A DNA stretch of 64,000 nt from a plasmid: the sequence record NZ_CP084013.1; one strand, given 5' to 3'. Position numbers and translations under genes: made by a program. Below are positions 11,020 through 49,480 of the stretch, piece by piece. Under the pieces are notes generated by a model, which was not told where the DNA came from, ran no database searches, and was given only the letters and a program-made list of their open reading frames with translations. Positions within the stretch are counted from its first letter, which is position 1. Each line of letters starts with the position of its first letter.

Positions 11020-11241
11020 CGGCGCAGCATCCTTTTTTAAGACAACGTTCTGGAAGATTGACCGGCTTTTCCTGTTCCGAAGTTGGGTGGAGGAAAACCG
11101 GACGGATACTACGATTATCATTCGTTCAAAGAACGATTCTTGAAGAAAATCTGAAAACCGTGGCATTAACCCGCTTTAGGGCTGTTGCCTGTTACCGAAC
11201 TGTTTTGTTTTCTTAAGTAATCCTATGTTATAATAAATCCC

Positions 11242-11835
11242 ATGTTGGTAAAGGAATGGGCCAGACTGGAAGGATTGCATCCGCAGACCGTGTGGAAATG
11301 GTGCCGTCAGGGCACCATGCCCGTTCCTGTGGAACAGACGCCGACCGGCATGTGGCTCATCCACGACCCGAAATACGAGACCATGCCGCAATCGAAAAGC
11401 ATGGAACCCCGCACCGTCTGCTATGCGCGAGTATCCAGCGGCGACCAAAAGAACGACCTGCAACGTCAAGCCGACCGGTTGAAGGCGTTCGCTCTGAACA
11501 TGGGTGTCGAGCGGCCGGAGGTGGTCATGGAGACCGGTTCAGGCATGGACGACAGGCGGCGCAAGCTCAACCGGCTATTGTCCGACCCGACCGTGGGCAC
11601 GCTGATCGTGGAGCACAGGGACAGGCTCGCCCGCATGAACGCGGGACTGGTGGAGAGCGCGTTGAAGGCGCAGGGACGCCGAATCATCGTGGTGGACGAC
11701 ACGGAGCTGGACGACGATCTGGTGCGCGACATGACCGAGGTGCTGACCTCGTTCTGCGCGAGACTGTACGGACGCCGCGCGGCCAAGCATCGTGCGGAGA
11801 AGGCGTTGGAGGCGATGCGCGATGAGCGCGTATGA
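11242..11835 (+). CDS. tnpA: IS607-family transposase TnpA (small serine recombinase with N-terminal MerR-like HTH)
   Basis: The motif YARVSSGDQKNDLQRQ carries the catalytic Ser. GSGMDDRRRKLNRLL is also present. Confidence 0.8.
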   Translation: MLVKEWARLEGLHPQTVWKWCRQGTMPVPVEQTPTGMWLIHDPKYETMPQSKSMEPRTVCYARVSSGDQKNDLQRQADRLKAFALNMGVERPEVVMETGSGMDDRRRKLNRLLSDPTVGTLIVEHRDRLARMNAGLVESALKAQGRRIIVVDDTELDDDLVRDMTEVLTSFCARLYGRRAAKHRAEKALEAMRDERV

Positions 11836-13144
11836 GGCCGTTAGGATTCGGCTCGACCCAACCCCACGGCAGACACGGCTGTTGGAATCCCATGCGGGCG
11901 GCGCGCGTTTCGCATACAATCTGATGCTCGCTCACGTCCAGCGCCAAATCTCCTTGGGTGAGAAACCGGACTGGACGTTGTACGCGATGCGCCGCTGGTG
12001 GAACGAGTGGAAGGACGAAATCGCCCCGTGGTGGCGGGAGAACAGCAAGGAGGCGTACAACAGCGCGTTTGAATGGCTGTCCCAAGCGTTGAGGAACTGG
12101 TCGGACAGCAGGAAGGGCAGGCGCGCGGGCCGCAGGGTGGGCTGGCCGAAATACAAGTCGAAACGCTCCGGTGTCCCGCGTTTCGCATACACGACCGGCA
12201 GCTTCGGCCTTATCGAGGACGACCCGAAGGCGTTGAAACTGCCACGCATCGGACGCGTGCACTGCATGGAGAACGCCACCGAACGCGTCCACGGCAGACG
12301 AATCGTGCGCATGACCGTCAGTCGCCATGCGGGCTTCTGGTATGCGGCCCTCACCGTCGAACGTCCCACCGAAAGCGTTCCCGCGAAAAACAGAAAACAG
12401 AAGAACCGTAATCGTCAGGTCGGCGTGGATTTGGGCGTCAGGACCCTCGCCACCCTCTCGGATGGCACCACGTTCCCCAATCCACGCAACTACGTCCGCA
12501 TGCAACGGAAACTCCGCCACGCCCAACAGGCGTTAAGCCGCCGCGACAGGGGCATGAGCCATGGATGCGGGTCGAAACGGTACAACAGGGCGTTGGGGCG
12601 CGTGCGCCGAATCCACGCCCGCATAGCCGCCCAACGAGCCGACAACATCAGCAAGCTCACCACGTGGCTCGCCGACAATTATTCCGACATCAGCATCGAA
12701 GACCTCAACGTGCAAGGCATGAGCCATAACAGGAGGCTTGCCAAACACATACTGGACGCGGACTTCCACGAGTTCCGCCGCCAACTGGAATACAAGACCG
12801 CACGCGCCGGCACGAGGCTCCATGTCATCGACCGCTGGTATCCAAGCTCGAAGACCTGTTCGAACTGCGGGACGGTGAAAGCCAAACTGCCCCTGTCCGA
12901 ACGCGTCTACCATTGCGGCAAGTGCGGACTTGTCATCGACCGTGATGTGAACGCGGCCATCAACATCCAAGTCGCCGGGAGTGCCCCGGAGACGTTAAAC
13001 GCGCGTGGAGGAAGCGTAAGACAGACCCGCCTTGAGTGCGGGACAATGCGGCATCCGGCGAAACGCGAACCAAGCGGCGGCGACAGTCGCGTGAGACTTG
13101 GAGCTGGTCTCGGCAACGAGGCCATGCAGATGACTCCGCTCTAG
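11822..13144 (+). CDS. tnpB: TnpB (OrfB) RuvC-like RNA-guided endonuclease homolog
   Basis: VGVDLGV (RuvC-I). IEDLNVQGM (RuvC-II Glu). Zinc finger CSNCG...CGKCG. DRDVNAAINI (RuvC-III). Confidence 0.85.
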   Translation: MSAYEAVRIRLDPTPRQTRLLESHAGGARFAYNLMLAHVQRQISLGEKPDWTLYAMRRWWNEWKDEIAPWWRENSKEAYNSAFEWLSQALRNWSDSRKGRRAGRRVGWPKYKSKRSGVPRFAYTTGSFGLIEDDPKALKLPRIGRVHCMENATERVHGRRIVRMTVSRHAGFWYAALTVERPTESVPAKNRKQKNRNRQVGVDLGVRTLATLSDGTTFPNPRNYVRMQRKLRHAQQALSRRDRGMSHGCGSKRYNRALGRVRRIHARIAAQRADNISKLTTWLADNYSDISIEDLNVQGMSHNRRLAKHILDADFHEFRRQLEYKTARAGTRLHVIDRWYPSSKTCSNCGTVKAKLPLSERVYHCGKCGLVIDRDVNAAINIQVAGSAPETLNARGGSVRQTRLECGTMRHPAKREPSGGDSRVRLGAGLGNEAMQMTPL

Positions 13145-13162
13145 CGACAAGCTAAAACAAAG

Positions 13163-13441
13163 TCATCTACAACGGTGCAACATGTCCACTAGTTTCTGTG
13201 GTATTCCGTCCTCGATATCCCATTCGACGGTTTCGAACCGGCTGTTCGAGGCGGCGGCCCGATCGTCGCCAACCTCAATGCTCACATCGGAGCCGTCCGG
13301 GAAATACTTGATCAACGTCATAGTGCCGCGGCCGGGCGGAAAGCTCACGTGGAACCCGCCGCCCAATGCGGTGGCGATATCGACCGCATTGCATGCTGCC
13401 TCGCCGCTCACATAGGTCAGCCGTTCGCATTCATCCATCAT
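13163..13441 (-). CDS. Hypothetical protein (92 aa)
   Basis: Internal ATG (MMDECER...). It forms an ATGA overlap with the upstream membrane-protein gene. Confidence 0.45.
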   Translation of the reverse strand: MMDECERLTYVSGEAACNAVDIATALGGGFHVSFPPGRGTMTLIKYFPDGSDVSIEVGDDRAAASNSRFETVEWDIEDGIPQKLVDMLHRCR

Positions 13442-13932
13442 TCGCCGTCCCCGTTGTTCTTCCGATACTCTTCGCTGGCGATGTACGTGACCGCGAAGTC
13501 GGCTATCTGGTCGCGCAGCCTCGGAAACGCCTCCCTGCCCGCCTTCTGGCGCCGGTCCATGATCCATGCGAACAAGCCGAAAAGGATGCAGCCGCCCAGC
13601 AGCCCGTAGCAGTTCGCGTCGGCCGGCTGATGCGATGAAAGGGCCGCCAGGCCTGCCCACCAGCCGATGCCGAGCATGATGCCAAGCGCGTGCATGCCGA
13701 TCGCGAACGGGGTCTCGTCATCATCCACGATGTCCAGCCAGCATTGCAATCCAAGGACGACGAGCAGGAACGCGACAAGCCACAACGGCGAGTGGAGAAG
13801 TCCGACGAGCAGCGGCGTATGGTTCGCGGCCAGCCAGGCGAGGATCGGCCCGTGGTTGAATGCGAACACGATCGCCATAATAAATAGGACGATCGCCGTC
13901 CACGCGAGACGGCGCACGGCTTCCAGACTCAT
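13438..13932 (-). CDS. Hypothetical integral membrane protein (about 4 TM)
   Basis: Multiple long hydrophobic segments. Confidence 0.55.
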   Translation of the reverse strand: MSLEAVRRLAWTAIVLFIMAIVFAFNHGPILAWLAANHTPLLVGLLHSPLWLVAFLLVVLGLQCWLDIVDDDETPFAIGMHALGIMLGIGWWAGLAALSSHQPADANCYGLLGGCILFGLFAWIMDRRQKAGREAFPRLRDQIADFAVTYIASEEYRKNNGDGE

Positions 13933-14011
13933 GATTCCTCCCCCTGCTGCCTTCCTGTCCGATTCAGCCGATCATGCCGCAGTTCCGCGGCCCACCAATC
14001 GTATGTGTTCA

Positions 14012-14608
14012 TCATCGCCTGCCCTCCATCATCAAATCCAATATGACGGCCAATGGCACCACGTCATGACTGGCGTGGGCCTTACACACGGGACCGTACC
14101 AGCCGGTTTCGGGCATATCCTCACAGTCGGGGCCGTCCGTCCGCATCCAACGGCGGATCGCGACCACGGGTTTGCCGCAGGATTCGTAGTCGCCGTCGCG
14201 GGATACGCCGGCCGTGCATCCTAGACGCAGCCAGGACGGGTCGCATAAGGCGAAGACGCGCATCGGGTCGTATGGCCATACGCCCGATAGCGGTGGCATG
14301 AGCGACGGATCATGCTTCCAGCAGCCGGCATCGGCCACGGCCTTCAACACCTCCGATAGCGGGACGACATCATGGTTGGCATGCAGCTTGCACGCGGGTC
14401 CGTAGACGCCCTCCTTGGGTAAAAATTCGCTATCGTCGTACCCGTCGTCGCGTGTCCAACGGCGGATGGCGACCGGCGGCCTGCCGCACTGTTTGAAATT
14501 CTCGCCCTTCCAGCAGCCGGCCGCGCAGCCGAGCCGCAGGGCCAACGGGTTGCATCGTTCGGCGATGAGCTTCGGATCGTACGGCGTTGGTTTCTTGCAT
14601 TTGGTCAT
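14012..14608 (-). CDS. Cys/His-containing protein with an internal tandem duplication
   Basis: Two roughly 90-aa repeats (…GPACKLHANHDVVPL… and …GPVCKAHASHDVVPL…). A 27-codon ORF (13929..14012) bridges it to the next gene through ATGA overlaps. Confidence 0.5.
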   Translation of the reverse strand: MTKCKKPTPYDPKLIAERCNPLALRLGCAAGCWKGENFKQCGRPPVAIRRWTRDDGYDDSEFLPKEGVYGPACKLHANHDVVPLSEVLKAVADAGCWKHDPSLMPPLSGVWPYDPMRVFALCDPSWLRLGCTAGVSRDGDYESCGKPVVAIRRWMRTDGPDCEDMPETGWYGPVCKAHASHDVVPLAVILDLMMEGRR

Positions 14609-15843: not shown

Positions 15844-16049
15844 ATAAATGAAAAAATTATGCAAGGTTTGAAATAAAAAATCCCCCGATGCCATACGGCG
15901 CCGGAGGATTATTTGTCCACATAGAATGACGTTTCATAGAAACCAATGATCCTACGACAGCAAAAGCTGCAAGACCCAAAGTAGGTGAACTACTGGACAT
16001 GCTCACACAAGATGCTATGGCGCGGAAAAATCACTCGCCGTCCATAATT

Positions 16050-17440
16050 TTTTAGGCAGGGTACCACGACCCTTGTGGTCGTGGGTGAATGCCTTTCCTT
16101 TCCACTAACATTATGATATAATGTTTTTTATTGGAGGTGAAGCATATGGTGGAACTCGCATTGACCATGAAAGTCAAGCTCACGACCAACAAACACGAGT
16201 CTGAAGCCCTTAACCGCCTATGTGACAATTACACCTCCTGTTGCAACGAAGTATCCGATTGGATTGGAGAACACCACACCCTCAGCCAGAGGAAAATCAA
16301 CGAGGCTGTCTATCACCCGCTACGCGACAAATACGGACTGTTGGCCCAGATGACCCAATCTTCGATACGGCGGGTCATCGCGTCCTACAAGGCAATTCAC
16401 TCGCGCATGGAACGCCGGAACGGAGAAAACCCCAAGAGAAAGAGGACGGCATACTATTCCACCAGACCAAAGTACTCGTCCGCCGGTGTTGACCTGCTGT
16501 GGAACCGCGACTACTCCTATTCGCCCATGACGGGAATGTTCAGCCTTCCCGTCATGGGCGGGAGAATCAAAGTGAAAGCCCAATGGAAGGGAACCCCGGA
16601 CGAATACCGTACGGCACGTTTCGGTACCGCCCGACTGATATCGAAACGAGGCAAATGGTACCTGCATATTCCCATCATCCTACAGGTTCCCGACCCAACC
16701 CCAAGCCCCAAAAACATAGTGGGCGTGGACTTGGGCATCCGAATGCTCGCCACCAGTTATGACGGCGAAACCACCGTCTTCCAACATGGAGGGGAGGTGA
16801 AAAGCAAGCGCGGCAAATACAAGCGGCTCCGTCAACAGTTGCAGAAACGCGGCACCCGAAGCGCTCGCAGACGACTCAAGACCATAGGCGACAGAGAAAA
16901 CCGTTGGATGACTGATGTGAACCATCAGGCGTCTAAGGCACTCGTCAACCATTACGACAGGGATACGATGTTCGTTCTCGAAGACCTTACGGGAATCCGC
17001 AATGCGACCGAACAGGTCAGGGTCAAGGACAGGTATGTTCAGGTCAGTTGGAGTTTCCACCAATTCCGGCAGATGGTCGAATACAAGGCGAAACGCAACG
17101 GTCAGAAAGTCGTGTTCGTTGACCCGGCCTACACAAGCCAGACCTGCCCGAAATGCGGGAAAATCCGCAAAGCCAACCGTGACAAGAAACGCCACCTGTA
17201 TGTCTGCCGCAACTGCGGATACCGGTCCAACGACGACCGGATAGCCGCGATGAACCTGCGACACAAAGGCTACGACCTTTTGAGCTCGCAGTACGCCGCC
17301 AGCATGACTGACGGCGTAAGGGTGCAGTCAACCACCCTATGATGTTCCGTCAATTAAAGGTAGGAGAACGGTTACAGCCGTTCACTGGCACTACCGGACA
17401 GGGACAAGCCGCAATGCTCGTCATTGCGGTCGTTGACATA
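16050..17440 (+). mobile_element. IS1341-type (IS200/IS605 family) element carrying only tnpB
   Basis: It is a solo tnpB. A candidate subterminal hairpin lies upstream (ccacgaccCTTGTggtcgtgg, about 16058-16078). A second lies downstream (ccgcaatgCTCGTcattgcgg, about 17403-17423). Boundaries are inferred. Confidence 0.45.
16131..17342 (+). CDS. tnpB: TnpB (OrfB) RuvC-like RNA-guided endonuclease homolog
   Basis: IVGVDLGIRMLAT, FVLEDLTGI, CPKCGKIRK...CRNCGYRS and NDDRIAAMNL. Confidence 0.85.
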   Translation: MEVKHMVELALTMKVKLTTNKHESEALNRLCDNYTSCCNEVSDWIGEHHTLSQRKINEAVYHPLRDKYGLLAQMTQSSIRRVIASYKAIHSRMERRNGENPKRKRTAYYSTRPKYSSAGVDLLWNRDYSYSPMTGMFSLPVMGGRIKVKAQWKGTPDEYRTARFGTARLISKRGKWYLHIPIILQVPDPTPSPKNIVGVDLGIRMLATSYDGETTVFQHGGEVKSKRGKYKRLRQQLQKRGTRSARRRLKTIGDRENRWMTDVNHQASKALVNHYDRDTMFVLEDLTGIRNATEQVRVKDRYVQVSWSFHQFRQMVEYKAKRNGQKVVFVDPAYTSQTCPKCGKIRKANRDKKRHLYVCRNCGYRSNDDRIAAMNLRHKGYDLLSSQYAASMTDGVRVQSTTL

Positions 17441-17507
17441 CAATTCCTCGTCCGCGATCTCCTCGCTTCCCTCGAACACGATCGCGCCTTCATCGTCACG
17501 ATGCTCG

Positions 17508-17801
17508 TCAAACCACGCTTTGGCCTCCTTTCCTGCTGGTCTTAGTAGGAGGGGTTTCTTTGAGCCACATCTCGAGGAGTTCTGGTGAGTTGATTTCGGC
17601 AGACAGCTTTTCGACGTATGCCTTGTCGCGCTTGTACTGGCAGTTGGGGCACCGTTGGCAGCGTTCCATCCAGCTTTTCTGGCAGGCGCTGATGTCCTCG
17701 TAGACGCGCTTGTGCCCGCAAATGAAGGTGACTTCGCGGGTGGCGAGGATGTCGTGGTCGAGGTCGTTGGTTTCGTGTTGTTCTTCGATGGTGAGTGCCA
17801 T
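17508..17801 (-). CDS. Small zinc-ribbon protein
   Basis: CGHKR...CQRCPNCQ. Its ATG is preceded by the RBS gaaagaggaaacc and by repeat copy c. Confidence 0.55.
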   Translation of the reverse strand: MALTIEEQHETNDLDHDILATREVTFICGHKRVYEDISACQKSWMERCQRCPNCQYKRDKAYVEKLSAEINSPELLEMWLKETPPTKTSRKGGQSVV

Positions 17802-17823
17802 TGGTTTCCTCTTTCATTATCTT

Positions 17824-17849
17824 TATGTGGACATACTCAGTATAACAGA
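17824..17849 (-). promoter_or_regulatory. Repeated promoter cassette, copy c
   Basis: The reverse complement reads ctgTTATACTGAgTATGTCCACATAA. Confidence 0.6.
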
Positions 17850-17954
17850 TATCTTGGTGGTGAGATAACGAAGAAACAGGAGAAAACCAGAAAACAATAG
17901 ATAACGTGGAACCAGAAAAACACGACAGCCCCTTCCAACGAAAAAAAAAACAAC

Positions 17955-18548
17955 ATGCCAGCCAACAAATCAATCCAAGCCCGCCAACAGCTGCGAGACC
18001 CCAACACCGGACGATTCCGAGACGAGCACCGTCAATCCGGTATGCCAACCGACGAATCCATACGAAAATACGAACAGCAACCCCGGCCGCCATTGCCTCC
18101 CCCCACCGAAGTACCCCTACCCCCAGCGAAAGCAAGACAAGCGAGCTCCAGAACCATTCCGGTGGACGGAAGACCAGGCTCCACGCTCACCGTGCAAGAC
18201 GTGCCGGACCAGACACACGGCATGAAACGTCACACGCAATTCCAATCCCCCACCACCTCCATCAGATTGGAAACGCCGATATCGAAAAATATCAACCTCC
18301 CGAAGATGGAAAAGGTCGCCGACGATCTGGAGACATGGCGAACCCGTTCCAATGAGAAACGTGGCGAATACGATGCGCCGATCGCGCGGATGGAGGCATC
18401 CGGAACCGGATTGAACCGGCTGACGGTACGCCCGGTATTCGGGACGCCTCCCCGTAGACCTTGGCAGCCATGGAAATGGAAAGCATGGCAAAAAGCGAGG
18501 GAGCGAGAGTCCCTGGCCTCGAATGGATTCGACTACATACACAATTAG
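17955..18548 (+). CDS. Paralogous family member P2 (conserved N-terminal module, proline-rich variable C-terminus)
   Basis: MPANKSIQARQQLRDPNTGRFRDEHRQSGMPTDESIRKYEQQ. Confidence 0.6.
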   Translation: MPANKSIQARQQLRDPNTGRFRDEHRQSGMPTDESIRKYEQQPRPPLPPPTEVPLPPAKARQASSRTIPVDGRPGSTLTVQDVPDQTHGMKRHTQFQSPTTSIRLETPISKNINLPKMEKVADDLETWRTRSNEKRGEYDAPIARMEASGTGLNRLTVRPVFGTPPRRPWQPWKWKAWQKARERESLASNGFDYIHN

Positions 18549-18563
18549 CAGAAAAGAGCAGAA

Positions 18564-19040
18564 ATGGTAGATACGGTCAGATCAGCGCAGGCGAGACGCC
18601 AACTGAGGGAACCCGAGAGCGGCCGGTTCAAGGACGAACACAAAAAAGCCGGGTTCCCGAATGCTGACGCCTTGGAAAAATATGAGCGGCAAACATCCGT
18701 CGTGTCTCCGCCCGCATCCTATTACGACGGGACCATGAGCGAAGAGAATCGTGAACTGTGGGCCGAAGGGATGGACGCACTCCAAGACAACTCCCCCTAT
18801 GTAGGTTTTTCCGGAGGATTCGACGAACAGGATGACGCATCAATCGACGGATGGCGCATACACCGAAGGAACACTCCGACAGGAAACACAGTGTACGAGT
18901 TTCGAGACGCGAAAAGCTCAACCCCAAACCGAGTGGCGTACCTGATCAAGCAATCGGATATTGACGCCGGTCATTCCCCCACATGGTTGGATGAACGGCA
19001 GCGGTCATTCTTCACCGTTCTGACAAACGGCAAAAGGTAA
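18564..19040 (+). CDS. Paralogous family member P3
   Basis: MVDTVRSAQARRQLREPESGRFKDEHKKAGFPNADALEKYERQ. Confidence 0.6.
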   Translation: MVDTVRSAQARRQLREPESGRFKDEHKKAGFPNADALEKYERQTSVVSPPASYYDGTMSEENRELWAEGMDALQDNSPYVGFSGGFDEQDDASIDGWRIHRRNTPTGNTVYEFRDAKSSTPNRVAYLIKQSDIDAGHSPTWLDERQRSFFTVLTNGKR

Positions 19041-19107
19041 GAGCTGCGGCAGACAGCTCGAAAACGTAAATAGACAACCTCCCTACACAAAATAGCAAGG
19101 AGAAACA

Positions 19108-19953
19108 ATGGTCGACTCCAGAAAATCAGCACAGGCAAAACAGCAACGTCGAAACCGTGACGGCACTTATGCGGATGAAGGCAAAACTAGTAGCATGCCG
19201 AGCGGGGACATCCTTGAACGTTTCGAACAACGTCAGCAAACCAATACTGGTGATGCGCCGGTTGAAACCTATGAGGCAGGCGTGAAGCGTATGCAGGAGC
19301 TGGATCAGAGGCTTATCGACATTGCCAACAAGGAGTATGAGGAACGTAAGTTCGGCCCGGACGATGAAGCGTATCGCGTGGAGTCGGGCATGTATGTCAG
19401 CAAGGAGGAGTTCGAGAAGCTGCCGGAATTGGATCGCAACCGGTATATCGCATGGGGCAACGACTGCATGGATGACAACGAGGATGCGTGGAACGATCCT
19501 CAAAGAATGGAAGAGCTTGCCCGAGAGTCAGCGGAGGATGATGATGCCGAAGTGTATTTGACCGAACCGGAGCTGACTTACACGGATGACATGGATTATT
19601 CCTTCGGAGAGTATCTGGAATCCAAGGGTTGCAACCCACAGTCGGCGGAGGAAGGCGCCAACATGGCGCTCCAAGGCCATCCCAATCTGGAAGTGACCGG
19701 CAACACGTATCCGCAGGTGTGGCCAACCGACACTGGCAACAACCATCGACGTGCGAAACTCTTCTACCTAGGTGGCAGCAAAGGATGGCGAGTCACCTTC
19801 TCGGACGGTCGCGGCGACGTGAACAAAACCGTCATCGACTATAAGAAAAGCGACATGGGCAGCGACTACTACGATCAGACCAACACCGCACGAGAAGCGT
19901 TCAAGACCGCATTCGACTGGGTGGACGGCGGAAACAAAAAGAAGAAGCACTGA
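19108..19953 (+). CDS. Paralogous family member P4 (acidic variable C-terminus)
   Basis: MVDSRKSAQAKQQRRNRDGTYADEGKTSSMPSGDILERFEQRQ. Confidence 0.6.
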   Translation: MVDSRKSAQAKQQRRNRDGTYADEGKTSSMPSGDILERFEQRQQTNTGDAPVETYEAGVKRMQELDQRLIDIANKEYEERKFGPDDEAYRVESGMYVSKEEFEKLPELDRNRYIAWGNDCMDDNEDAWNDPQRMEELARESAEDDDAEVYLTEPELTYTDDMDYSFGEYLESKGCNPQSAEEGANMALQGHPNLEVTGNTYPQVWPTDTGNNHRRAKLFYLGGSKGWRVTFSDGRGDVNKTVIDYKKSDMGSDYYDQTNTAREAFKTAFDWVDGGNKKKKH

Positions 19954-20037
19954 CATTCATGGGTTCTTGACCCGTATTTCTTCCGAAAGAAGTCCACGCC
20001 AAGAACCCGGTCTGCCTTTGCCAATATCTTGGGGAAT

Positions 20038-20394
20038 ATGCCTGATATTTCCTTGAACTGCACGAGACTCGATTCGAACGTAATCGAAATCGAGTTTGAT
20101 GATGGTCTGCTGCATTACCGTTTGAATCTGTCTTCGAATGCTGCACATACGCTGCTTACGCTTATCGACAGCGTGCTTAAGGAACCATCCGCGAACAAAC
20201 TAGAGAGAATAGAAGACCTGCGATTCGATGTTTGGGACGATGGAGGAAATCGTTATGGCATCAGGGTATCAAACCACGGTGCAAGCATAACCGGCCGTGT
20301 ATCGGCAATCGAATTGGATACATTCGCGGACAAGCTGGAACAATTCGAATTCGGCGTACAGACGGGAGTCGGCCTCAGCAAGCCAGAAGAATAG
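20038..20394 (+). CDS. Hypothetical protein
   Basis: ATG inside ORF 20029..20394. Confidence 0.4.
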   Translation: MPDISLNCTRLDSNVIEIEFDDGLLHYRLNLSSNAAHTLLTLIDSVLKEPSANKLERIEDLRFDVWDDGGNRYGIRVSNHGASITGRVSAIELDTFADKLEQFEFGVQTGVGLSKPEE

Positions 20395-20456
20395 AACAAT
20401 GTGGCCAGTCTTCCTTGATCCCCCGTACAAGACAGATAGGCCACATTGCAATGCAA

Positions 20457-20900
20457 TCAGTCCTGATTTTTTTGAAGCCAATCGACTAGATCGGCAGCGG
20501 TCAGATCAGACAGCCTTCTATTGGTTCTCAATTGTCGCGCAACTTCATAGTCGTGAAGAAAATCGCTGATTTCGGACGTGGTCCAATCCTTGTTTCTCAA
20601 ATGTCGTTTCAATCGTTCCAAAGGCCAGTAAATGCGATGAGCCTCCAACATCAGCTCTTCAGCGTCTCTTCTATCTGTATCCCATTCAAAGACGAGAAGA
20701 TTGATTGCCTTCTGCCTGTCAATACCTAATTCAGCGAATACACGAGCAATATGCTTCCTTTCCTGTTTCCGTTCGAAAGCTAACGCCTGATTGACTTCCT
20801 CATTGACATTGTCTATTGCATTATCCTGGGCCGCATCTAATGCGACTGAACCTATTTGACTAATGGTGTCTACGATTAGATTTTTGTCTACCACTGTCAC
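20457..20900 (-). CDS. Hypothetical protein co-transcribed downstream of the Type IIG RM gene
   Basis: ATGA overlap with the RM gene stop. Lower GC than its surroundings. Confidence 0.45.
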   Translation of the reverse strand: MTVVDKNLIVDTISQIGSVALDAAQDNAIDNVNEEVNQALAFERKQERKHIARVFAELGIDRQKAINLLVFEWDTDRRDAEELMLEAHRIYWPLERLKRHLRNKDWTTSEISDFLHDYEVARQLRTNRRLSDLTAADLVDWLQKNQD

Positions 20901-23686: not shown

Positions 23687-23711
23687 GATTCCCAATGGTA
23701 TCCGGTTTCCC

Positions 23712-24302
23712 TCATGCCGGTCGGATATCGACCACATCATGCGGCGTGATCGTCCATAGGCAGGCCTGGATCCACCGGTCCGGCAGCCGTTTCGGATCCG
23801 CGATCGCGTTCGCCCTGTACTGGAGCCGTTTCTTTTCGGCCAGATCGTCCCAATGCTCGTCCAGCCACCGGTCGTACTCCTCAGGCGGCCATGTGCCGGC
23901 ATCCAGCGGGGCGCACGGACACCGGTTGATGACGCAATGGTATTGGTCGAAATCCGTGCAAAGCACCCGGTTCTCATCGACCCGCAGATGCAGGAGCTCC
24001 AACCCGTCGTACTGGTTGCGGAAGCCCGGATACCGTCGGTCGGGACGCGTATGCGCCCTGCCTTTCGAATCGACCCAGCGCGCCCACGCCCACAAGGGGG
24101 CCGCGTCCGGGTCCGGACGCGGCATGCCCTTGTGCTCCATTTCGCCCATCATCCACTCATAGGCGGGGCTGATGCCGTCCCACCAGTCCGAATCCCCGTC
24201 CTCGGCAATGGATTTCGCGCGCGCGGCGCTCCATGATGGAGTGTACGAACCGGAACGGTCGAACGCGGCCCTGACATCCGGCCACCGCTGGAACGAATAC
24301 AA
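23712..24302 (-). CDS. Hypothetical protein (Trp-rich) upstream of the RM gene
   Basis: Same-strand ORF directly upstream. Confidence 0.4.
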   Translation of the reverse strand: MYSFQRWPDVRAAFDRSGSYTPSWSAARAKSIAEDGDSDWWDGISPAYEWMMGEMEHKGMPRPDPDAAPLWAWARWVDSKGRAHTRPDRRYPGFRNQYDGLELLHLRVDENRVLCTDFDQYHCVINRCPCAPLDAGTWPPEEYDRWLDEHWDDLAEKKRLQYRANAIADPKRLPDRWIQACLWTITPHDVVDIRPA

Positions 24303-32220: not shown

Positions 32221-32808
32221 ATGAAGTTGTCGGAGTACGCGGCCAAGCATGGCATCCAGTATCGTGCCGCTTGGAACCGGTTCAAGGCGGGGAAGATTCC
32301 CGGCGCTTGGCAGGACGAGTCGGGGACGATAATCGTGCCCGACGAGACGCAGGCGCGCCTGAACGACGCCGCCGTGTACGCCCGTGTCTCCGACCCGTCG
32401 AAACGCAAGACCCAACTGCCCGCGCAGCAGAAGCGTGTGGAGGATTGGGCCATCGCCAATGGTTATCGGGTGGTCGCGTCCGTGTCCGAGGTCGGTTCTG
32501 GGGTGAACGACAAGCGTCGCCGTCTGTCCGCGTTGCTGAAGCGCGATGATTGGGGGACGCTCATCGTGGAGCACAAGGACAGGCTGACCCGGTTCGGGTT
32601 TGAATGGTTCCGTCTGTTCATCGAACAGCAGGGGCGTCGCATCGTGGTCATCAACGAGGCGGGCGACGACCGGGCGGACTTGGCGCAGGATTTGGTGAGC
32701 ATCATCTACTCGTTCAGCGCCCGCCTGTACGGGCAACGGCGTTCCAAACGCGCGGAGGCCATGGTCCGCATCGTGGAGGATGGTGAGCGCGATGCCGTCC
32801 AAGCGTAA
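32221..32808 (+). CDS. tnpA: IS607-family TnpA serine recombinase
   Basis: YARVSDPSKRKTQL. GSGVNDKRRRLSALL. MerR-like N-terminus. Confidence 0.75.
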   Translation: MKLSEYAAKHGIQYRAAWNRFKAGKIPGAWQDESGTIIVPDETQARLNDAAVYARVSDPSKRKTQLPAQQKRVEDWAIANGYRVVASVSEVGSGVNDKRRRLSALLKRDDWGTLIVEHKDRLTRFGFEWFRLFIEQQGRRIVVINEAGDDRADLAQDLVSIIYSFSARLYGQRRSKRAEAMVRIVEDGERDAVQA

Positions 32809-34243: not shown

Positions 34244-34454
34244 AAAGCACACTCTGGAACGATGGGTCGATCGGAACGTACCGGCCCGGCATGTTCCCGC
34301 CGCAGTCGCAGCGCACCGTGTACCGTTCCGTCGTATCGTCCACATCATCGTAGATTCGTGGCATGCCGCCGCAGAACGGGCATGGCTTCAACGTCTCGTG
34401 TTCGACCGTCGCATGCCTGTTGTTGCGGGAATCCCAGATTCCTGTGGCCTCCAT
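34221..34454 (-). CDS. Lar-family restriction alleviation protein (zinc ribbon)
   Basis: LKPCPFCGG....VRCDCGG. Confidence 0.6.
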   Translation of the reverse strand: MEATGIWDSRNNRHATVEHETLKPCPFCGGMPRIYDDVDDTTERYTVRCDCGGNMPGRYVPIDPSFQSVLSNGFLFR

Positions 34455-35461
34455 CAGAGCCTGCCCTTCCGCCTGTTTCGTTCCAGACAGTCATCCATCG
34501 CCCGTCCGACCTCCTCATCCGTGATGCCGAACGCCGTGATCAGGTTGCCGACCGTCTGCAACACGTCGGCCAGTTCGTCGAGCATGGCCTGGCGACGCTG
34601 GTCGCGCACATGGCCTATCCAGCCGGCCTTCGCCTTGTCCCGGTCGTCGCCAAGCTCGCCGCCCACGTTCACCCCGTAACAGGCGAGACAGTCCGCATGA
34701 TCGTCGAACTGGTCGCCGATGCCGCTCGGATCGGTCGGATCGCAGGCCTTCAGGTATTGCTTGCATGCCTCCACGAGTTCGGCCGACTCTTCGAGGTTCT
34801 TGACGGCCAGCCACTTGTCCCGTTCCAGACGGCCGAACGATCGGACATCCGGGAGATGCACGGTGCGGCTCCCCTCATGGATCGGAGTGGAATCATTGGA
34901 GGCCGGCTTCCATGGAATCTCTTCGACGGTTTGGAGCGAATACCGGGTGTACGGGCCGTGCGCGGACGGTTCCCCGGAATCGTCGTCAAGCTCTTCGGCC
35001 GTCCATCCGCGATCGGCGATCCACGGCTTGCACCAGTCAAAGTGAGTGCCTTCATCATCCATCGGCTCGAAGTCGCAGCGTGCCCACGGGCCCCATTCGT
35101 GGAGCATCCTCACGGTGATGCCGGAACAAGGCGCGCATTCCCATTCGCGGCCCTCTTCCTTCAGCCGGAAGATGTGCCCGTCGATCCCGTCGCCGCCTGT
35201 GATGAGCCAGAGCGTGCCGTTCGCGTCGCTCCAGCATCCCGCCGTGTCGGGCATGGCGGAGAACCCGGCCCTGGTCAGGTCTATCCCCTTCCATTCGGTT
35301 CGCTGGAACGGTGCGGCCTGTTCCAGCTGTCCCGCGGACAGGATCTCGCCGGTGTCCGCATCCCGTATCGCGAGCTCGCCGGATTCCATGCAGGCCACGA
35401 CCGTTTTCTCGTTCGCATCCCGCCACAGTCCGGGCGCATCCGGTTTCTCGCGGCCGCTCAT
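34454..35461 (-). CDS. Protein with a C-terminal MazG-like NTP pyrophosphohydrolase domain
   Basis: NLEESAELVEA...DELADVLQTVGNLITAFGITDEEV. RBS GGGAGAGG. Confidence 0.5.
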   Translation of the reverse strand: MSGREKPDAPGLWRDANEKTVVACMESGELAIRDADTGEILSAGQLEQAAPFQRTEWKGIDLTRAGFSAMPDTAGCWSDANGTLWLITGGDGIDGHIFRLKEEGREWECAPCSGITVRMLHEWGPWARCDFEPMDDEGTHFDWCKPWIADRGWTAEELDDDSGEPSAHGPYTRYSLQTVEEIPWKPASNDSTPIHEGSRTVHLPDVRSFGRLERDKWLAVKNLEESAELVEACKQYLKACDPTDPSGIGDQFDDHADCLACYGVNVGGELGDDRDKAKAGWIGHVRDQRRQAMLDELADVLQTVGNLITAFGITDEEVGRAMDDCLERNRRKGRL

Positions 35462-41405: not shown

Positions 41406-41418
41406 CGCTCCTCCTCTT

Positions 41419-41444
41419 TTTATGTGGACTTCTTCAGTATAACA
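41419..41444 (-). promoter_or_regulatory. Repeated promoter cassette, copy d-left (left arm of the divergent inverted pair)
   Basis: The reverse complement reads ttgTTATACTGAAgaaGTCCACATAA. Confidence 0.55.
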
Positions 41445-41461
41445 ACCATATTGTATTTTAC

Positions 41462-41487
41462 ATGTTATACTGAATATGTCCACATAA
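41462..41487 (+). promoter_or_regulatory. Repeated promoter cassette, copy d-right (right arm of the divergent inverted pair)
   Basis: atgTTATACTGAATATGTCCACATAA. It is separated from the left arm by 17 bp. Confidence 0.6.
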
Positions 41488-41515
41488 AAAGATTGAAAGA
41501 GAAAACCAAAGGAAA

Positions 41516-42783: not shown

Positions 42784-42942
42784 CCGAAAAGACTGGCAGC
42801 CCGAGGACACGCAAGTGGAGACCGCGGCTATGGCGCTACGTGCCCAGCAAATGCGCCTGTGGAATCTCGTCGAGGACAGTGCGACTGTCGACCGCTGCTG
42901 GCAGCAGAAACGGATTAAGGAATCGTTGAAAGGTCAGGACAA

Positions 42943-43204: not shown

Positions 43205-43795
43205 ATGAGCTACTGGGACAAATACCGAAGCGACGATCCACGACGCATCCCGCCGCTGGAGGCGCCATTGCTCGACTACATCGTGCTCGACACCGAAACC
43301 ACCGGCCTCAACCCGGAAGATGGCGCGAAACTCATCGAAATCGGCGCCGTGAAAGTCAAGAACGGACGAATCGTCGACACCTACAGCCAACTCATCAACC
43401 CGCAAATGATCGTCCCGCCACACATCACGCAATTGACGGGAATCACCACTTACGACGTGAGCGGCAAACCGACTGTCAAGCATGCGATGAAAGAGTTCGA
43501 ACGGTGGCTGGGATTCGAAACGCCCTTCCTCGCACACAACGCGACGTTCGATTTGAAATTCCTCGACTGGGCCACGGCGGAAACCTGGCCGAATCGCCCC
43601 CTGTTCGACCACCCATTCCTGGATACCTTGGAAATGAGCCGTGACATCCATCCGGAAATTCGCCATCACAAGGTCGCGGATCTGATCAAACGCTATCACG
43701 TGGCAGACGTGGAACAGCATCGAGCTCTTTCCGACGCAATGCAAGAGCAAGCCTTGTACCAGATTATGTGCAAGGAGTATTTCCTCGGAGCCTGA
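43205..43795 (+). CDS. DEDDh 3'-5' exonuclease (DnaQ / Pol III epsilon-like)
   Basis: VLDTETTGL (Exo I), FLAHNATFDLKFL (Exo II) and HRALSDA (Exo III). Confidence 0.75.
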   Translation: MSYWDKYRSDDPRRIPPLEAPLLDYIVLDTETTGLNPEDGAKLIEIGAVKVKNGRIVDTYSQLINPQMIVPPHITQLTGITTYDVSGKPTVKHAMKEFERWLGFETPFLAHNATFDLKFLDWATAETWPNRPLFDHPFLDTLEMSRDIHPEIRHHKVADLIKRYHVADVEQHRALSDAMQEQALYQIMCKEYFLGA

Positions 43796-43867
43796 TTTGC
43801 AGTTGTTGTGTTTGCGGTCGAATGCGGCTATAATTTATTTTACATATTATGATTGGAGGTGTTTGGT

Positions 43868-44491
43868 ATGCGCACGTATCTTCGGAGGGCCGAGGCGGCG
43901 AACCGTCTGCACATATCGACCACCGCGTTCAAAACGCTCGTAGCCGAGGGGAAAATCAAATACGAGCTGTCGCCCGGCGGGCAGAAGGTGTATGACCCGA
44001 AGGAAATCGACCGTTTCGCCGCCCGCGTTCAGGGTAGGGAGCCGGCGGAAGGCGTTCTCGTGTTCTACGTGCGGGACAGCGAGGGCAACACGACGCGAAT
44101 GAGAAATCAGGAGGAGCGGCTAGAGAAGGCGTATGGCGCTCCGTCAAAAGTGTACCGCGACCGCGCCTCCGGATTGAATGAGAACCGCAAGGGACTGGCA
44201 CGACTGCTCGACGACGCGGAGGAGGGACGTTTCGACCGGGTGGCCGTCACCGCCAAAGACAGGTTGAGCAGGTTCGGCGCATCTTATCTACAACGGCATC
44301 TCGCGTTCCTCGGCATCGACCTGATTGTGTTGGACGGGGAACGGGAGAAGGGGATGATGGACGAACTCATGGACGACTTCATGGCTTTGCTCGCCTCGTT
44401 CTCCGGACGGTTCTACAAGCTGCGCAGCATCGAACATGAGAAACTGCTGCTCGACCGGGCGCGCGAAAGACTGGAGGAGCGTGGAGCATGA
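43868..44491 (+). CDS. tnpA: IS607-like TnpA (serine recombinase family, divergent catalytic region)
   Basis: VLVFYVRDSEGN. RASGLNENRKGLARLL matches GSGxxxxRxxLxxLL of the other two TnpA. GGAGGT RBS. Confidence 0.55.
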   Translation: MRTYLRRAEAANRLHISTTAFKTLVAEGKIKYELSPGGQKVYDPKEIDRFAARVQGREPAEGVLVFYVRDSEGNTTRMRNQEERLEKAYGAPSKVYRDRASGLNENRKGLARLLDDAEEGRFDRVAVTAKDRLSRFGASYLQRHLAFLGIDLIVLDGEREKGMMDELMDDFMALLASFSGRFYKLRSIEHEKLLLDRARERLEERGA

Positions 44492-46146
44492 AAACCGGTG
44501 AAATCGCCTGCGCTGTTCCAGACCTGCACGACTACCGTCTATACGACCACAGGACAGGCGAACCGTTGGACCCGGTGGAGGCCGAAACGCTGCTCTGGCT
44601 GCACTTGGACCATTGCCGGCAATGCCAGAACCGGATGATTCACGACCCGAGGAACCGGAATCTCAAACGGGGCGGAAATGCTGGGAGAGGCAACGAATGG
44701 GCGAGGAAGAACGTCGCCTGCACAAGCCTGCCCTCCAAGTTCAGAAACCTCTCCCATCAGAACCGCGTCAATCAGACCGAGGCCGCCCGACTGCTCCTCG
44801 CATGGCGGGAACGCGAGGACATCGCCACCGCAATCGACGCCATCGGCTGGGAGAAGGCCACCTACGGGAACGTGCAGAAACGTTTGAGCCGGGACATCGA
44901 CCGTGAACTGTTCACGAACGTGCTCAACAGCGGCGGTCATCCAAGCCTGCCCACCGTGGAGCGCACGCAGTTCCCCTACGCGTACTCGAACAACAACTCC
45001 TGCGGCATGTACGTCATCGACCAGCCCGCCGGGGTCATCCGATACGAGCGGATGGCCGTCTACGACAGGTTCGTGGACGTTGAGATATACGCGCCGCACA
45101 TCATGCGCCTGCATCCGAACCTGACGAAGGTGTCCCGGCCCACGCTACGGTGGAACGGGGACTGCGTGACATGGGATGTCATCGTCTTCGAACCAAAACC
45201 CCGCAAAGAGGATGTGAACAAGGTGAGCCACGTCGTCGGCTTCGACCTGAACGCCGACTGGCATGGTGGCATCAGCGGGGCGCGACTCTCCTACAACGGG
45301 ACGGTGAGCCGAGAACTCGTAGCCGGCATCGACACACGCCGCCAGCAAACCGTGTTGGAGGAGCTGTATGTCCAATACCAGCGGTGTTTGAAGAAGCTCG
45401 ACCGGCTCATGCCATGGCAGCGGCCACACGACCCGGACGACCCGCAGCAAGTGGCAGCCCACCCCGAATGGCGGCGACTCTACGAACAGTCGCTCAACCT
45501 CCGGGATAAGATGTACCGCATCAAAACCCTGTTGGACTGGCGGTACGCGCACGACATCACCGACCATGCCAAACCCGGCGAACTCATCGCCGTGGAGAAA
45601 CTTTCCCCGTTCGATGCGGCAGGACGCGTCGAGTTCCGGCACGGCAGCCAACTGGAAAAACTGGAACACGTCGCCTCCAAGACCGGACAGCGCGTGGTGC
45701 AGGTCAACCCGGCGCACACGTCCGCCACCTGCCCGTGGTGCGATACCGTCAACAAGGTCGGCAAAGCCAGACAATACCGGTGCGCAGGATGCAGACGTGA
45801 CATCCCCCGCGACTACGGGTCTGGCGTCAACATCGCCAAACGCGGCGCACGCTATCTCGGACACAAAAACGTCCGACCTACCCCGCCGAAGGGACACGCC
45901 ACACCCAAACGTCCACCGGTCAGACACAAACGACCGGACGAAAAAACACGAGAACTTCTCACACAGATAACGTCAGGAACCGGCAAGGGGCCGGAATCCT
46001 TATGGGCCAAGACCACTCCACTGGAATGGCACATCCCATCGACGGCGACTATCGAGAATACAAGGAACCGACTAGCCCTCGCAAACCAGCGAGACCGGGC
46101 AGCAACGGGGTTACGGCAGAAACCGCAACCACCCCATTCTCGATAA
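44488..46146 (+). CDS. tnpB: TnpB-like RuvC nuclease (552 aa)
   Basis: VVGFDLNAD. LIAVEKLS. CPWCD...CAGC. RDYGSGVNIA. Confidence 0.7.
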   Translation: MKTGEIACAVPDLHDYRLYDHRTGEPLDPVEAETLLWLHLDHCRQCQNRMIHDPRNRNLKRGGNAGRGNEWARKNVACTSLPSKFRNLSHQNRVNQTEAARLLLAWREREDIATAIDAIGWEKATYGNVQKRLSRDIDRELFTNVLNSGGHPSLPTVERTQFPYAYSNNNSCGMYVIDQPAGVIRYERMAVYDRFVDVEIYAPHIMRLHPNLTKVSRPTLRWNGDCVTWDVIVFEPKPRKEDVNKVSHVVGFDLNADWHGGISGARLSYNGTVSRELVAGIDTRRQQTVLEELYVQYQRCLKKLDRLMPWQRPHDPDDPQQVAAHPEWRRLYEQSLNLRDKMYRIKTLLDWRYAHDITDHAKPGELIAVEKLSPFDAAGRVEFRHGSQLEKLEHVASKTGQRVVQVNPAHTSATCPWCDTVNKVGKARQYRCAGCRRDIPRDYGSGVNIAKRGARYLGHKNVRPTPPKGHATPKRPPVRHKRPDEKTRELLTQITSGTGKGPESLWAKTTPLEWHIPSTATIENTRNRLALANQRDRAATGLRQKPQPPHSR

Positions 46147-46191
46147 CCCTAATCCCGGGCATACTGGATTCTATTCTTTCCTGATATTTTG

Positions 46192-47199: not shown

Positions 47200-47211
47200 T
47201 AAGATTGTTCC

Positions 47212-47694: not shown

Positions 47695-47801
47695 CCTTCC
47701 TCGCCAAGGATTCCCCCGCCTCTAAGCGAAGCGTAGGCGGGGGATGAATTGGCGTATCTATATATGTTATACTGTAATCAGTCGTATATGTTATAAACGA
47801 G

Positions 47802-48209
47802 GTGATTGCAGTGGAATTGGAGTCGAATCATCATTCGGTGTTCCTGTTGTATTATCATCTCGTGCTCGTCGTGAAATACCGTCGCAAGGTGTTCGACGAC
47901 ATCGTTTCGGCGCGTGCGCGTGAGATATTCGAGTACATCGCACCCAAGTATGGGATAACCGTTGAGGAATGGAACCACGACATGGACCACGTGCACGTAT
48001 TGTTCCGTGCCCAGCCGAAGAGCGAGTTGAGCAAGTTCATCAACGCTTACAAGAGCGCGTCGAGTCGTCTGCTCAAGCAGGAGTTTCCGCAGATTCGGCA
48101 GAAACTGTGGAAGGAGTATTTCTGGAGCCGCAGCTTCTGCCTACTGACCACAGGAGGCGCGCCAATCGAAGTCATCCGCAAATACATCGAGAACCAAGGC
48201 AGGAAGTAA
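47802..48209 (+). CDS. tnpA: IS200/IS605 TnpA (Y1 HUH transposase)
   Basis: YHLVLVVKYRRKVF. HUH motif HDMDHVHVLF. Catalytic Tyr region KSASSRLLKQEF...YFWSRSF. Confidence 0.8.
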   Translation: MIAVELESNHHSVFLLYYHLVLVVKYRRKVFDDIVSARAREIFEYIAPKYGITVEEWNHDMDHVHVLFRAQPKSELSKFINAYKSASSRLLKQEFPQIRQKLWKEYFWSRSFCLLTTGGAPIEVIRKYIENQGRK

Positions 48210-48223
48210 GGAGGTGAACCATC

Positions 48224-49345
48224 ATGCAGGTGAAACGTCATTGCGCGGTCAAGTACCGCATGTACCCGAACAGGGCTCAGGCGGCATTGATTGACCGCAC
48301 CATCGGTTGTGCGAGGTTCATCTACAATCAGATGCTTGAAACCCGCATCGGCACCTATAAGGCTACGGGTAAGTCGTGCAATCCGACTCCCGCCCAGTAC
48401 AAGGACAGGTATCCGTTCCTGCGTGAGGTGGACAGCCTCGCACTGTGCAACGCCCAATTGAACGTGGCGAAGGCGTACAGGAACTTCTTCCGCGACCCCA
48501 AGCACATCGGCTTCCCGAAGTACAAGGCGAAGCATCGCAATCGTCAGACCTACACGACGAACAACAGCAATAACAACGTCACCCTCGATGAAGGAGGCAG
48601 GCATCTCAAACTACCGAAAGTAGGGATTGTGCGCGTCCGCCAGCATAAACGCATACCCGAAGACTGGAAACTGAAGAGCGTGACCATCGAGCATTGCAAA
48701 AACGGCGAATACACGGCGACGATACTGTTCGAGTACGAGACCCAAGCACTCGAACCCGTCCGACCCGTGCATATCGTCGGATTGGATTACTCCTCCCACG
48801 GCCTGTACGTGTCCAGCGACGGCGAACGAGCCGACTATTCGCGTTTCTACCGGCGGATGGAGCCACGGCTGATGCGCGAGCAACGTAGACTCAGCCACAT
48901 GGTAAAAGGGTCCGGTAATTGGGTGAAACAGAAGCGGCGCATCGCCAAGCTCGCCGCCAAGGTCGGGAACCAGCGAGCCGACTTCCTGCATAAGACGGCC
49001 AACCGGCTCGCCGCCCGATATGATTGCGTCGGCGTGGAGGACTTGGACATGAAGAACATGAGCCAATCCCTCACACTCGGCAAAAGCACGATGGACAACG
49101 GGTACGGCATGTTCCGCACCATGCTCGCATACAAGCTCGAACGGCAAGGCAAGCAGCTGGTCACGGTAGACAGGTTCTACCCGTCCAGTCAACTATGCTC
49201 CGATTGCGGATACCGCAATAAGGATACGAAGGACCTGCATATCCGCGAATGGACATGCCCTGACTGTGGCGTTTGGCATGACAGGGACGTGAACGCCGCG
49301 ACCAACATCATGCACGAAACACGACGACTCATGCAGGAACGATAA
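48224..49345 (+). CDS. tnpB: TnpB RuvC-like RNA-guided endonuclease homolog
   Basis: IVGLDYSS. GVEDLDMKNM. CSDCGYRN...CPDCGVWH. DRDVNAATNI. Confidence 0.85.
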   Translation: MQVKRHCAVKYRMYPNRAQAALIDRTIGCARFIYNQMLETRIGTYKATGKSCNPTPAQYKDRYPFLREVDSLALCNAQLNVAKAYRNFFRDPKHIGFPKYKAKHRNRQTYTTNNSNNNVTLDEGGRHLKLPKVGIVRVRQHKRIPEDWKLKSVTIEHCKNGEYTATILFEYETQALEPVRPVHIVGLDYSSHGLYVSSDGERADYSRFYRRMEPRLMREQRRLSHMVKGSGNWVKQKRRIAKLAAKVGNQRADFLHKTANRLAARYDCVGVEDLDMKNMSQSLTLGKSTMDNGYGMFRTMLAYKLERQGKQLVTVDRFYPSSQLCSDCGYRNKDTKDLHIREWTCPDCGVWHDRDVNAATNIMHETRRLMQER

Positions 49346-49480
49346 CAAAAAACTTACGAGAACCGTGGGGCGCACGGGAATAGCCTGTAGACACTGACTC
49401 GGATACGAGCCTTGAGCAGGAAGCCCCCACCTCAGATCGCGAAGCGGTCAGGTGGCGGGAGCACGTCACCCTCTGTCGTG

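Follow-up and report, generated by a model that had tools for sequence, protein, structure and literature searches.

Five tnpB genes within 40 kb of a Bifidobacterium longum megaplasmid and the insertion sequences that probably carry them

How do five genes for TnpB, an RNA-guided nuclease, come to lie within 40 kb of a single plasmid? This question is raised by a stretch of 64,000 nucleotides from sequence record NZ_CP084013.1, referred to here as the window. We found that the five genes very probably belong to five separate, complete insertion sequences of the IS200/IS605-IS607 type that home by means of TnpB and its omega-RNA. The elements are denoted E1 to E5 in order of position.

The window is part of a conjugative megaplasmid of the pMP7017 family from Bifidobacterium longum, and a megablast search against PLSDB returned matches to Bifidobacterium megaplasmids only. 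The relatives found there (B. longum CP146883, CP143940, CP065396, and CP065398, and B. breve pMP7017) shared 82-99% identity with it, with many presence/absence differences. Syntenic parts of four sibling plasmids, denoted L001-L004 and L103, were retrieved for comparison. IMG/VR holds many contigs of the same plasmid family, up to 188 kb in length, and those used here are denoted L104-L129.

Genes and boundaries of the five elements

All nine open reading frames (three serine-recombinase TnpAs, one Y1 TnpA, and five TnpBs) were uninterrupted and matched the expected families. An earlier note on this DNA had listed five tnpB genes in 40 kb, arranged as three IS607-like tnpA/tnpB pairs, one IS605 pair with a Y1 tnpA, and one solo tnpB. 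The domain matches bear out these families, and all five tnpB frames passed the check for disruption that the note had proposed. The serine TnpAs were recognized by Pfam Resolvase (E 1e-18) and keep the catalytic Ser motif, and the TnpBs were recognized by the Cas12f1-like TNB and OrfB_IS605 domains. A tblastn search of the window with all nine proteins detected no other fragments of TnpA or TnpB. The RuvC triad (D213, E303, D385) and the four zinc-ribbon cysteines (CxxC...CxxC) were invariant in a five-way alignment of the TnpBs. Pairwise identity among these proteins was only 21-31% by tblastn and alignment, so they represent five lineages, and the three lineages of the earlier note were an undercount.

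We compared the proteins with the NCBIfam models NF040570 (guided_TnpB, cutoff 100 bits), NF033518 (transpos_IS607, cutoff 110 bits), and IS607_TnpB (cutoff 350 bits). The guided_TnpB scores were 285.7 for E1, 222.5 for E2, 109.0 for E3, and 313.8 for E5. The transpos_IS607 model gave 202.8 for E1, 158.6 for E3, and 108.1 for E4, the last narrowly under the cutoff. The Y1 TnpA of E5 matched PF01797 (149.8 bits, E 5e-44) and NF033573 (142 bits) and has the HVH motif and the C-terminal Tyr, and the E5 TnpB scored 371 bits with IS200_TnpB. The true start of the E1 tnpB is likely the ATG at 11822.

The TnpB of E4 fails the sequence model, so its assignment rests on a fold match. An AlphaFold model built with 10 homologues (predicted local distance difference test 75.7) matched Cas12f/TnpB structures over ~490 columns (Foldseek E 7e-13, probability 1.0). 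The catalytic triad and the zinc ribbon are conserved across the family of this protein, and a serine recombinase was found directly upstream of tnpB in all six homologous loci examined. An orthologue is annotated by the Prokaryotic Genome Annotation Pipeline as "zinc ribbon domain-containing protein". An exhaustive profile search found only 46 cluster representatives with E < 1e-30 among 1.8 billion. The closest relatives occur in Bifidobacterium genomes, and the more distant ones checked were mostly metagenome proteins.

We then defined the ends of the elements. In every element family, nucleotide conservation reaches the right end and stops there. Empty sites, which the earlier note had suggested looking for in related genomes, were found in related plasmids, and no target-site duplication was observed at any of the five elements. 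For E1, CP146883 joins the equivalent of window position 11181 directly to that of 13174, with a single common GG and a right flank that is 100% identical. The E1 right end (...CAACGG) is kept in nine related loci, followed by divergence, and the left flanks of these relatives end in RGGG. A copy from a B. pullorum plasmid, cut by a contig end, was left out of the right-end definition. The E1 insertion lies in a hypothetical gene, 15 nt short of its end. The earlier note had also described left-end sequence shared by the two classic IS607 copies; this holds for ~10 nt (GTTGCYTGTT) and a similar -10 box of E1 and E3, and for nothing longer.

The E3 site is empty in pMP7017 (GGGTCT|GGAACG), and a 90-kb metagenome contig has a second copy, of 97.8% identity, at another GTCT. 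The GTCT left junction and the right end ...ACTCT were invariant in 5-6 loci of this family. A 486-aa "transposase" of CP146883 was considered as a further copy and ruled out at 28% identity. In the region 32110-34460, E3 sits in the 3' part of a minus-strand Lar-family restriction-alleviation gene, which has lost its last 17 codons and gained 10 residues from the E3 right end in their place. The insertion splits this gene from the overlapping downstream gene. The Lar-family gene is intact in pMP7017 and CP143940, and in-silico removal of E3 restores it.

The E4 site is empty in CP146883 (GAGCCT|AATCCC) and also in CP143940, which has a 99.45% identical copy, inverted, at another AGCCT ~900 bp off. 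The GCCT left junction and the right end ATAACCCT were invariant in 6-7 loci. E4 interrupts a 3'-5' exonuclease gene at its stop codon, which was regenerated as TGA in place of TAA. The E5 site is empty in CP143940 (TTTAA|CCTCTGTCG). The right end ...GCACGTCAC is kept in copies at other sites (89.6% and 99.6% identity) and is followed by divergence; copies of 99.6% identity were found at at least three sites, and other copies follow TTCAA. IMG/VR contigs and one GenBank "phage" contig supplied the copies at other sites, and a megablast search of E5 against the PLSDB plasmids returned same-site copies only. The paired subterminal hairpins with a common loop sequence that the earlier note had seen in E5 were confirmed. 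Both loops contain GCGAAGCG. The heptanucleotide GCGAAGC, present in these loops, forms a very stable DNA mini-hairpin.

E2 consists of a tnpB gene between two end hairpins and lacks a Y1 transposase, and was therefore classed as non-autonomous. TCCAT precedes its copies in at least seven unrelated contexts. We considered whether these five bases could be the first bases of the element, which was ruled out by the empty version of the sister E2 site in pMP7017. TCCAT is retained there; it is thus the target, or transposon-associated motif (TAM), and the element spans 16046-17437. The right end ...GCGGTCGTTGAC is common to three diverged and ~10 near-identical copies, beyond which the sequences diverge, and copies of 95-99.8% identity were found at at least seven sites. 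CP146883 resembles an empty E2 site. It is really a deletion of 16032-17719 with a 4-bp AAAT microhomology and was not used for the boundaries. The hairpin that the earlier note had placed in the tail of E2 was found at 17409-17429, and the noncoding tail of the element itself is 95 nt long, not roughly 165 nt.

Omega-RNAs, guides and mobility

The proposal that an omega-RNA lies between the 3' end of each tnpB and the right end was upheld by conserved predicted structures. The omega-RNAs of E1, E3, and E4 are supported by base-pair covariation, those of E2 and E5 less strongly. In E1, 12 of 41 pairs were compensatory (RNAalifold, 8 loci), including those of a terminal hairpin whose end coincides with the right end. 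The Rfam family RF03015 (Transposase-2) matched E1 over its full model at 84.8 bits, against a gathering score of 42.7. A search of Rfam at E up to 5 over 11-50 kb gave this as the sole true match. The RF03015 motif lies in the middle of a conserved structure that is longer and reaches the transposon end, which fits a role as part of an omega-RNA scaffold. The scaffolds of E2 to E5 are unrelated to it.

In E3, 15 of 60 pairs were compensatory. The last ~240 nt of E4 gave 27 compensatory pairs out of 61, with 90.6% of cells paired, compared with 3-6 compensatory pairs and 30-42% of cells paired in controls whose partners were slid by 1-3 columns. About 10 G-U cells of the E4 scaffold favor the tnpB sense strand. 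A covariance model of the 3' domain of the E4 omega-RNA matched only E4 and the copy in CP143940; no orphan copies were detected, and neither was the E3 RNA. Folding z-scores of the 3' regions, each computed on a single sequence, were -4.3 for E2, -3.7 for E3, and -2.2 for E5. In the diverged copies of E2, the right-end hairpin CCGCAATG/CATTGCGG becomes CCGCGATG/CATCGCGG.

The scaffolds of E1, E3, and E4 lie inside the tnpB coding sequence. Part of the unusual length of these three TnpBs is read-through of their own guide-RNA gene. In E4, the scaffold coincides with a C-terminal tail that AlphaFold predicted to be disordered (residues 470-552).

The guides would be the 16-20 nt that follow the right ends. 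The earlier note had placed them after 13144, 17342, 34243, 46146, and 49345. By the conserved right ends, their starts are at 13176, 17438, 34256, 46151, and 49470, which is 4-124 nt past the tnpB stop codons. In the empty site of CP146883, the E1 guide sequence follows AGGG. Sibling plasmids hold the TAM together with a perfect or one-mismatch target for the guides of E1, E3, E4, and E5. No secondary targets of the guides were found in the window.

Near-identical copies of E2 to E5 occupy other sites, and the flanks of E1 are identical to those of its empty site, so all five elements appear to have been recently mobile. We took the steps of the mechanism from published work on IS605 and IS607 elements (Zedaveinyte et al.), and the integrity, boundaries, target motifs, RNA conservation, and mobility of the elements from the present comparison. 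TnpA would move the element and reseal the donor site scarlessly, acting as a serine recombinase in E1, E3, and E4 and as a Y1 HUH enzyme in E5, and E2 would be mobilized by a Y1 enzyme supplied in trans. TnpB would bind an omega-RNA derived from the 3' end of the tnpB gene, and the terminal 16-20 nt of this RNA would be transcribed from the DNA past the right end. The complex would then recognize the resealed donor joint or an empty allele as a TAM with a guide match and cut it, and recombination with an occupied copy would restore or spread the element.

Table 1 Coordinates of the five elements, their parts, and the promoter motif in the window.
Feature	Position	Strand	Details
E1, IS607 element, 1994 bp	11182-13175	+	GG-dinucleotide insertion without target-site duplication
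E1 tnpA, serine recombinase	11242-11835	+	transpos_IS607 202.8 bits; Pfam Resolvase; catalytic YARVSS
E1 tnpB	11792-13144	+	IS607_TnpB 386 bits vs cutoff 350; D-E-D intact
E1 omega-RNA scaffold with terminal hairpin	13000-13175	+	Rfam Transposase-2 at 13060-13128
E1 guide-encoding flank (putative)	13176-13195	+	TGCAACATGTCCACTAGTTT; first non-conserved sequence past right end
E2 TAM/target TCCAT	16041-16045	+	directly before element; 8 or more unrelated left flanks
E2, non-autonomous solo-tnpB element (IS1341-type), 1392 bp	16046-17437	+	tnpB at 16131/16146-17342
E2 left-end hairpin	16064-16084	+
E2 right-end hairpin	17409-17429	+
E2 guide-encoding flank (putative)	17438-17457	+	ATACAATTCCTCGTCCGCGA; immediately past conserved right end
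E3, IS607-like element, 2092 bp	32164-34255	+	target GTCT; right end CTCT, TCT common with target
E3 tnpA, serine recombinase	32215-32808	+	transpos_IS607 158.6 bits
E3 tnpB, 487 aa	32780-34243	+	guided_TnpB 109 bits vs 100; triad intact
E3 omega-RNA scaffold	~34000-34255	+
E3 guide (putative)	34256-34275	+	GGAACGATGGGTCGATCGGA
E4, IS607-like element, 2357 bp	43794-46150	+	target GCCT; right end ...ATAACCCT
E4 tnpA, serine recombinase with HTH_17 domain	43868-44491	+	Pfam Resolvase 67.8 vs 23.3
E4 tnpB, divergent, 552 aa	44488-46146	+	Pfam: TNB domain only
E4 omega-RNA scaffold	45910-46150	+	wholly inside tnpB 3' coding region
E4 guide (putative)	46151-46170	+	AATCCCGGGCATACTGGATT
E5 TAM TTTAA	47690-47694	+	includes stop codon of upstream gene
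E5, IS605 element, 1775 bp	47695-49469	+	tnpA (Y1) 47802-48209; tnpB 48224-49345
E5 left-end hairpin	47702-47754	+
E5 right-end hairpin	49424-49458	+
E5 guide (putative)	49470-49489	+	CCTCTGTCGTGGCTGTTATA
34-bp motif, nine copies	3360, 15816(-), 17821(-), 41418(-), 41463, 43156, 46194, 47173 (weak), 49483

Alternative readings and the promoter motif

Several points weigh against reading the five elements as complete, homing insertion sequences. Expression of the omega-RNAs, the guide length, and the use of the TAMs by TnpB are all points that we infer. The covariation for E2 and E5 amounts to one compensatory hairpin pair each. The folding z-score of E5 is modest, its right-end hairpin alone was no more stable than shuffled sequences (z -0.6), and one E5 copy follows CTCAAG instead of TTYAA. 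The E4 TnpB scored 33.5 bits against the guided_TnpB threshold of 100, and its N-terminal half was recognized by predicted fold only, with template-modeling scores of 0.39 and 0.49. A cognate Y1 TnpA for E2 was not found in the window.

Some of the TnpBs, especially those of the solo E2 and the divergent E4, could instead have been domesticated as nuclease-dead, TldR-like regulators or be decaying relics. The missing transposase of E2, the divergence of the E4 TnpB beyond the NCBI model together with its annotation as a zinc-ribbon protein only, and a low-mobility TnpB clade of B. longum in a published survey would fit such a history. However, the D-E-D triad and the zinc ribbon are kept in all five proteins, near-identical copies of E2 and E4 occur at several sites, and their guides are simply the flanking DNA. 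We did not observe TldR-type features, as the RuvC triads are intact and the guides correspond to the immediate flanks, and we consider domestication extremely unlikely. A different possibility is that TnpB and omega-RNA act mainly as a gene drive or in inter-plasmid competition, so that element-free sibling megaplasmids are cut and eliminated or converted. The guide targets noted above are held by pMP7017, CP146883, and CP143940, an E2 copy of other plasmids has its target in the window itself, and sites that are otherwise 95-100% identical are polymorphic for each element. Any TnpB element homes in this way, however, and no specific adaptation is demonstrated. A main role of this kind seems rather doubtful to us.

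A further alternative concerns the choice of sites. A 34-bp promoter motif overlapping the -10 box, AWAYATGYTATACTGAATATGTCCACATAAAAWA, has been described for pMP7017, where it has 19 copies and is specific to the plasmid family (Microb Biotechnol 2024, PMC10832533). The "promoter cassette" of the earlier note is this motif. The note had placed several elements between its copies and suggested that the cassette region is a preferred target. E2 does lie between two copies, and E4 and E5 end 44 nt and 14 nt upstream of one, whereas E1 and E3 are kilobases from any copy. If the motif or its surroundings were a preferred target, the guides would home to promoter regions, and the E5 guide does overlap the first motif bases. 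Yet the insertion motifs (GG, TCCAT, GTCT, GCCT, and TTYAA) are specific to each element and all lie outside the 34-mer, and no guide matches a second motif copy at up to 4 mismatches in 16 nt. Other sites of E2, E3, E4, and E5 are mostly without the motif within 600-3000 bp; in other contigs, with at least seven E2 and at least three E5 sites, it occurred within 600-900 bp only at window-type sites and one other. The paper on the motif does not mention transposases or TnpB, and we found no mechanistic link between motif and elements. We therefore regard targeting of the motif as very unlikely. The apparent association is most readily explained if only intergenic spacers and gene ends tolerate insertions. 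The region at 41-50 kb is built of one-gene units, and every intergenic spacer in it holds the motif. In all likelihood, the clustering reflects tolerated insertion points in a variable, non-essential region of the plasmid.

Two near-perfectly palindromic, divergent copies of the motif (41415-41492) gave Rfam microRNA matches at 41412-41492, which were rejected as spurious. The promoter of the E5 tnpA, ATATATGTTATACTG (47760-47774), matches the first 15 nt of the motif consensus and then diverges, and E1 contains a promoter-like sequence, TATGTTATAAT, that resembles it. This resemblance to the plasmid motif is probably merely a shared extended -10 promoter.

Plasmid setting and comparison with known systems

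TnpB density in the sibling plasmids was similar, at ~1 per 7-9 kb, so five genes in 40 kb are normal for the pMP7017 plasmid family. We are confident, if short of certain, that the five elements built up as separate, complete insertion sequences in the accessory part of a pMP7017-type megaplasmid. All five lie on one strand, for which the chance is ~1 in 16, and both orientations occur in the sibling plasmids.

The surroundings of individual elements varied among the relatives. Near E1, window 13471-14025 (~555 bp) is missing from CP146883, and in CP065398 the positions equivalent to 11179 and 13454 flank a 7.3-kb gene instead; the backbone beside E1 is highly variable by these comparisons. 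Around E2, an insertion hot spot was observed at 15870-17790 (compared with L001 1264-2662 and L003 29695-31506), where E2, a solo TnpB element of CP146883, and an IS605 element of CP065398 occupy neighboring positions, each with a different adjacent deletion of a small minus-strand gene (17508-17801). The window also contains an E2-type target that is free of the element, TCCAT followed by TTCGCCCATCATCCAC, at 24136-24157. It is the sister site that is likewise empty in pMP7017, and three IMG/VR megaplasmid contigs have an E2 copy there. The TnpB/omega-RNA of those three copies would target the window. In sibling plasmids, the E2 right end was found fused to the DNA just 3' of a downstream TCCAT, with deletion of 232 bp (17438-17669; CP143940 and L105) or ~6.7 kb (17438-24140; L116). 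These fusions could have arisen by recombination between two E2 copies or by the action of a transposase that linked the right end to a target motif farther downstream.

Upstream of E4, at window ~42832-42908, there are ~150 bp fewer than in CP143940 and CP146883. The missing stretch holds the AGCCT site at which CP143940 has its E4 copy, and CP146883 has a different IS605 element in the equivalent spacer. The gap may be a footprint of earlier element activity. At the far end of the window, at least six iteron-like 21-bp direct repeats (CTTAGAATTTTGACACC...) at 62038-62276 adjoin a RepA gene (60896-61945, minus strand), and this is probably a replication origin region. Sequences of the pMP7017 family are stored as viral contigs in IMG/VR, and an E5 copy lies in the GenBank "Bacteriophage sp." contig MT837053. 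The classification of pMP7017-type replicons as plasmid or phage-like may deserve a look.

The window provides five natural TnpB systems with exact ends, candidate TAMs, omega-RNA scaffolds, and guides, and their source is a human-gut commensal in which engineering is difficult. They offer useful starting material for compact genome editors that function in Bifidobacterium and other high-GC Actinomycetota, and they mark pMP7017-type megaplasmids as a reservoir of active IS605/IS607 elements. Transposases are not a topic of the published accounts of these plasmids that we consulted. Local consequences are the truncated Lar-family gene and the element-adjacent deletions in sibling plasmids. The general picture of how TnpB elements function is unchanged.

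Compared with known systems, E1 is a textbook IS607 element, E5 is a textbook IS605 element, and E2 is of the IS1341 type. E1 shares with the IS607 family, which includes IS607 of H. pylori and an IStron of Clostridium botulinum with characterized serine TnpA, TnpB, and omega-RNA, a serine TnpA gene overlapping the downstream tnpB, a length of ~2 kb, insertion without target duplication, the GG core, and an omega-RNA that ends at the right end. It fits the published pattern of the C. botulinum element, with an AGGG target and a scaffold ending in ...ACGG, against TGGG and ...UCGG there. E5 resembles IS608 and ISDra2 in its Y1 HUH TnpA and TnpB, its imperfect subterminal hairpins, its insertion 3' of a pentanucleotide without duplication, and its right-end omega-RNA, but it has its own TAM and hairpin sequences, with GCGAAGC in the loops. 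E2 is like IS1341-type elements in carrying tnpB only, between end hairpins, with a fixed TAM (TCCAT) and many copies. In contrast to them, it was recently active on megaplasmids, yet no matching Y1 transposase was found in the window.

E3 and E4 have the architecture and the scarless insertion of the IS607 family, as well as its pattern at the base directly ahead of the core, which is G in the target and C in the right end. In contrast to that family, their cores are TCT (GTCT/CTCT) and CCT (GCCT/CCCT). A GG core with a TGGG-like target was found in E1 only. No Rfam group I intron, the trait of IStrons, was matched, whether at the gathering threshold or in the search with E up to 5. Both the TnpA and the TnpB of E4 fall under the NCBI family cutoffs, unlike IS607 members. 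The E4 TnpB is alike in predicted fold to Cas12f/TnpB structures (PDB 9nzs, 8j3r, and 8iaz) at a sequence identity of 13-15%, but is longer and has a disordered tail that overlaps its own omega-RNA. The small novelties are thus the non-GG cores of E3 and E4, which would extend the known target choice of IS607-type serine transposases, and the rare E4 TnpB clade that the NCBI models miss. A more far-reaching comparison, which we put forward only tentatively and think unlikely to hold in full, would describe E3 and E4 as non-GG-core serine-recombinase TnpB elements with GYCT TAMs that act, on conjugative megaplasmids, as gene drives or weapons against sibling plasmids with the empty sites; the E4 TnpB would define a rare clade, mainly of Bifidobacterium and metagenomes, with an omega-RNA wholly inside its coding sequence.

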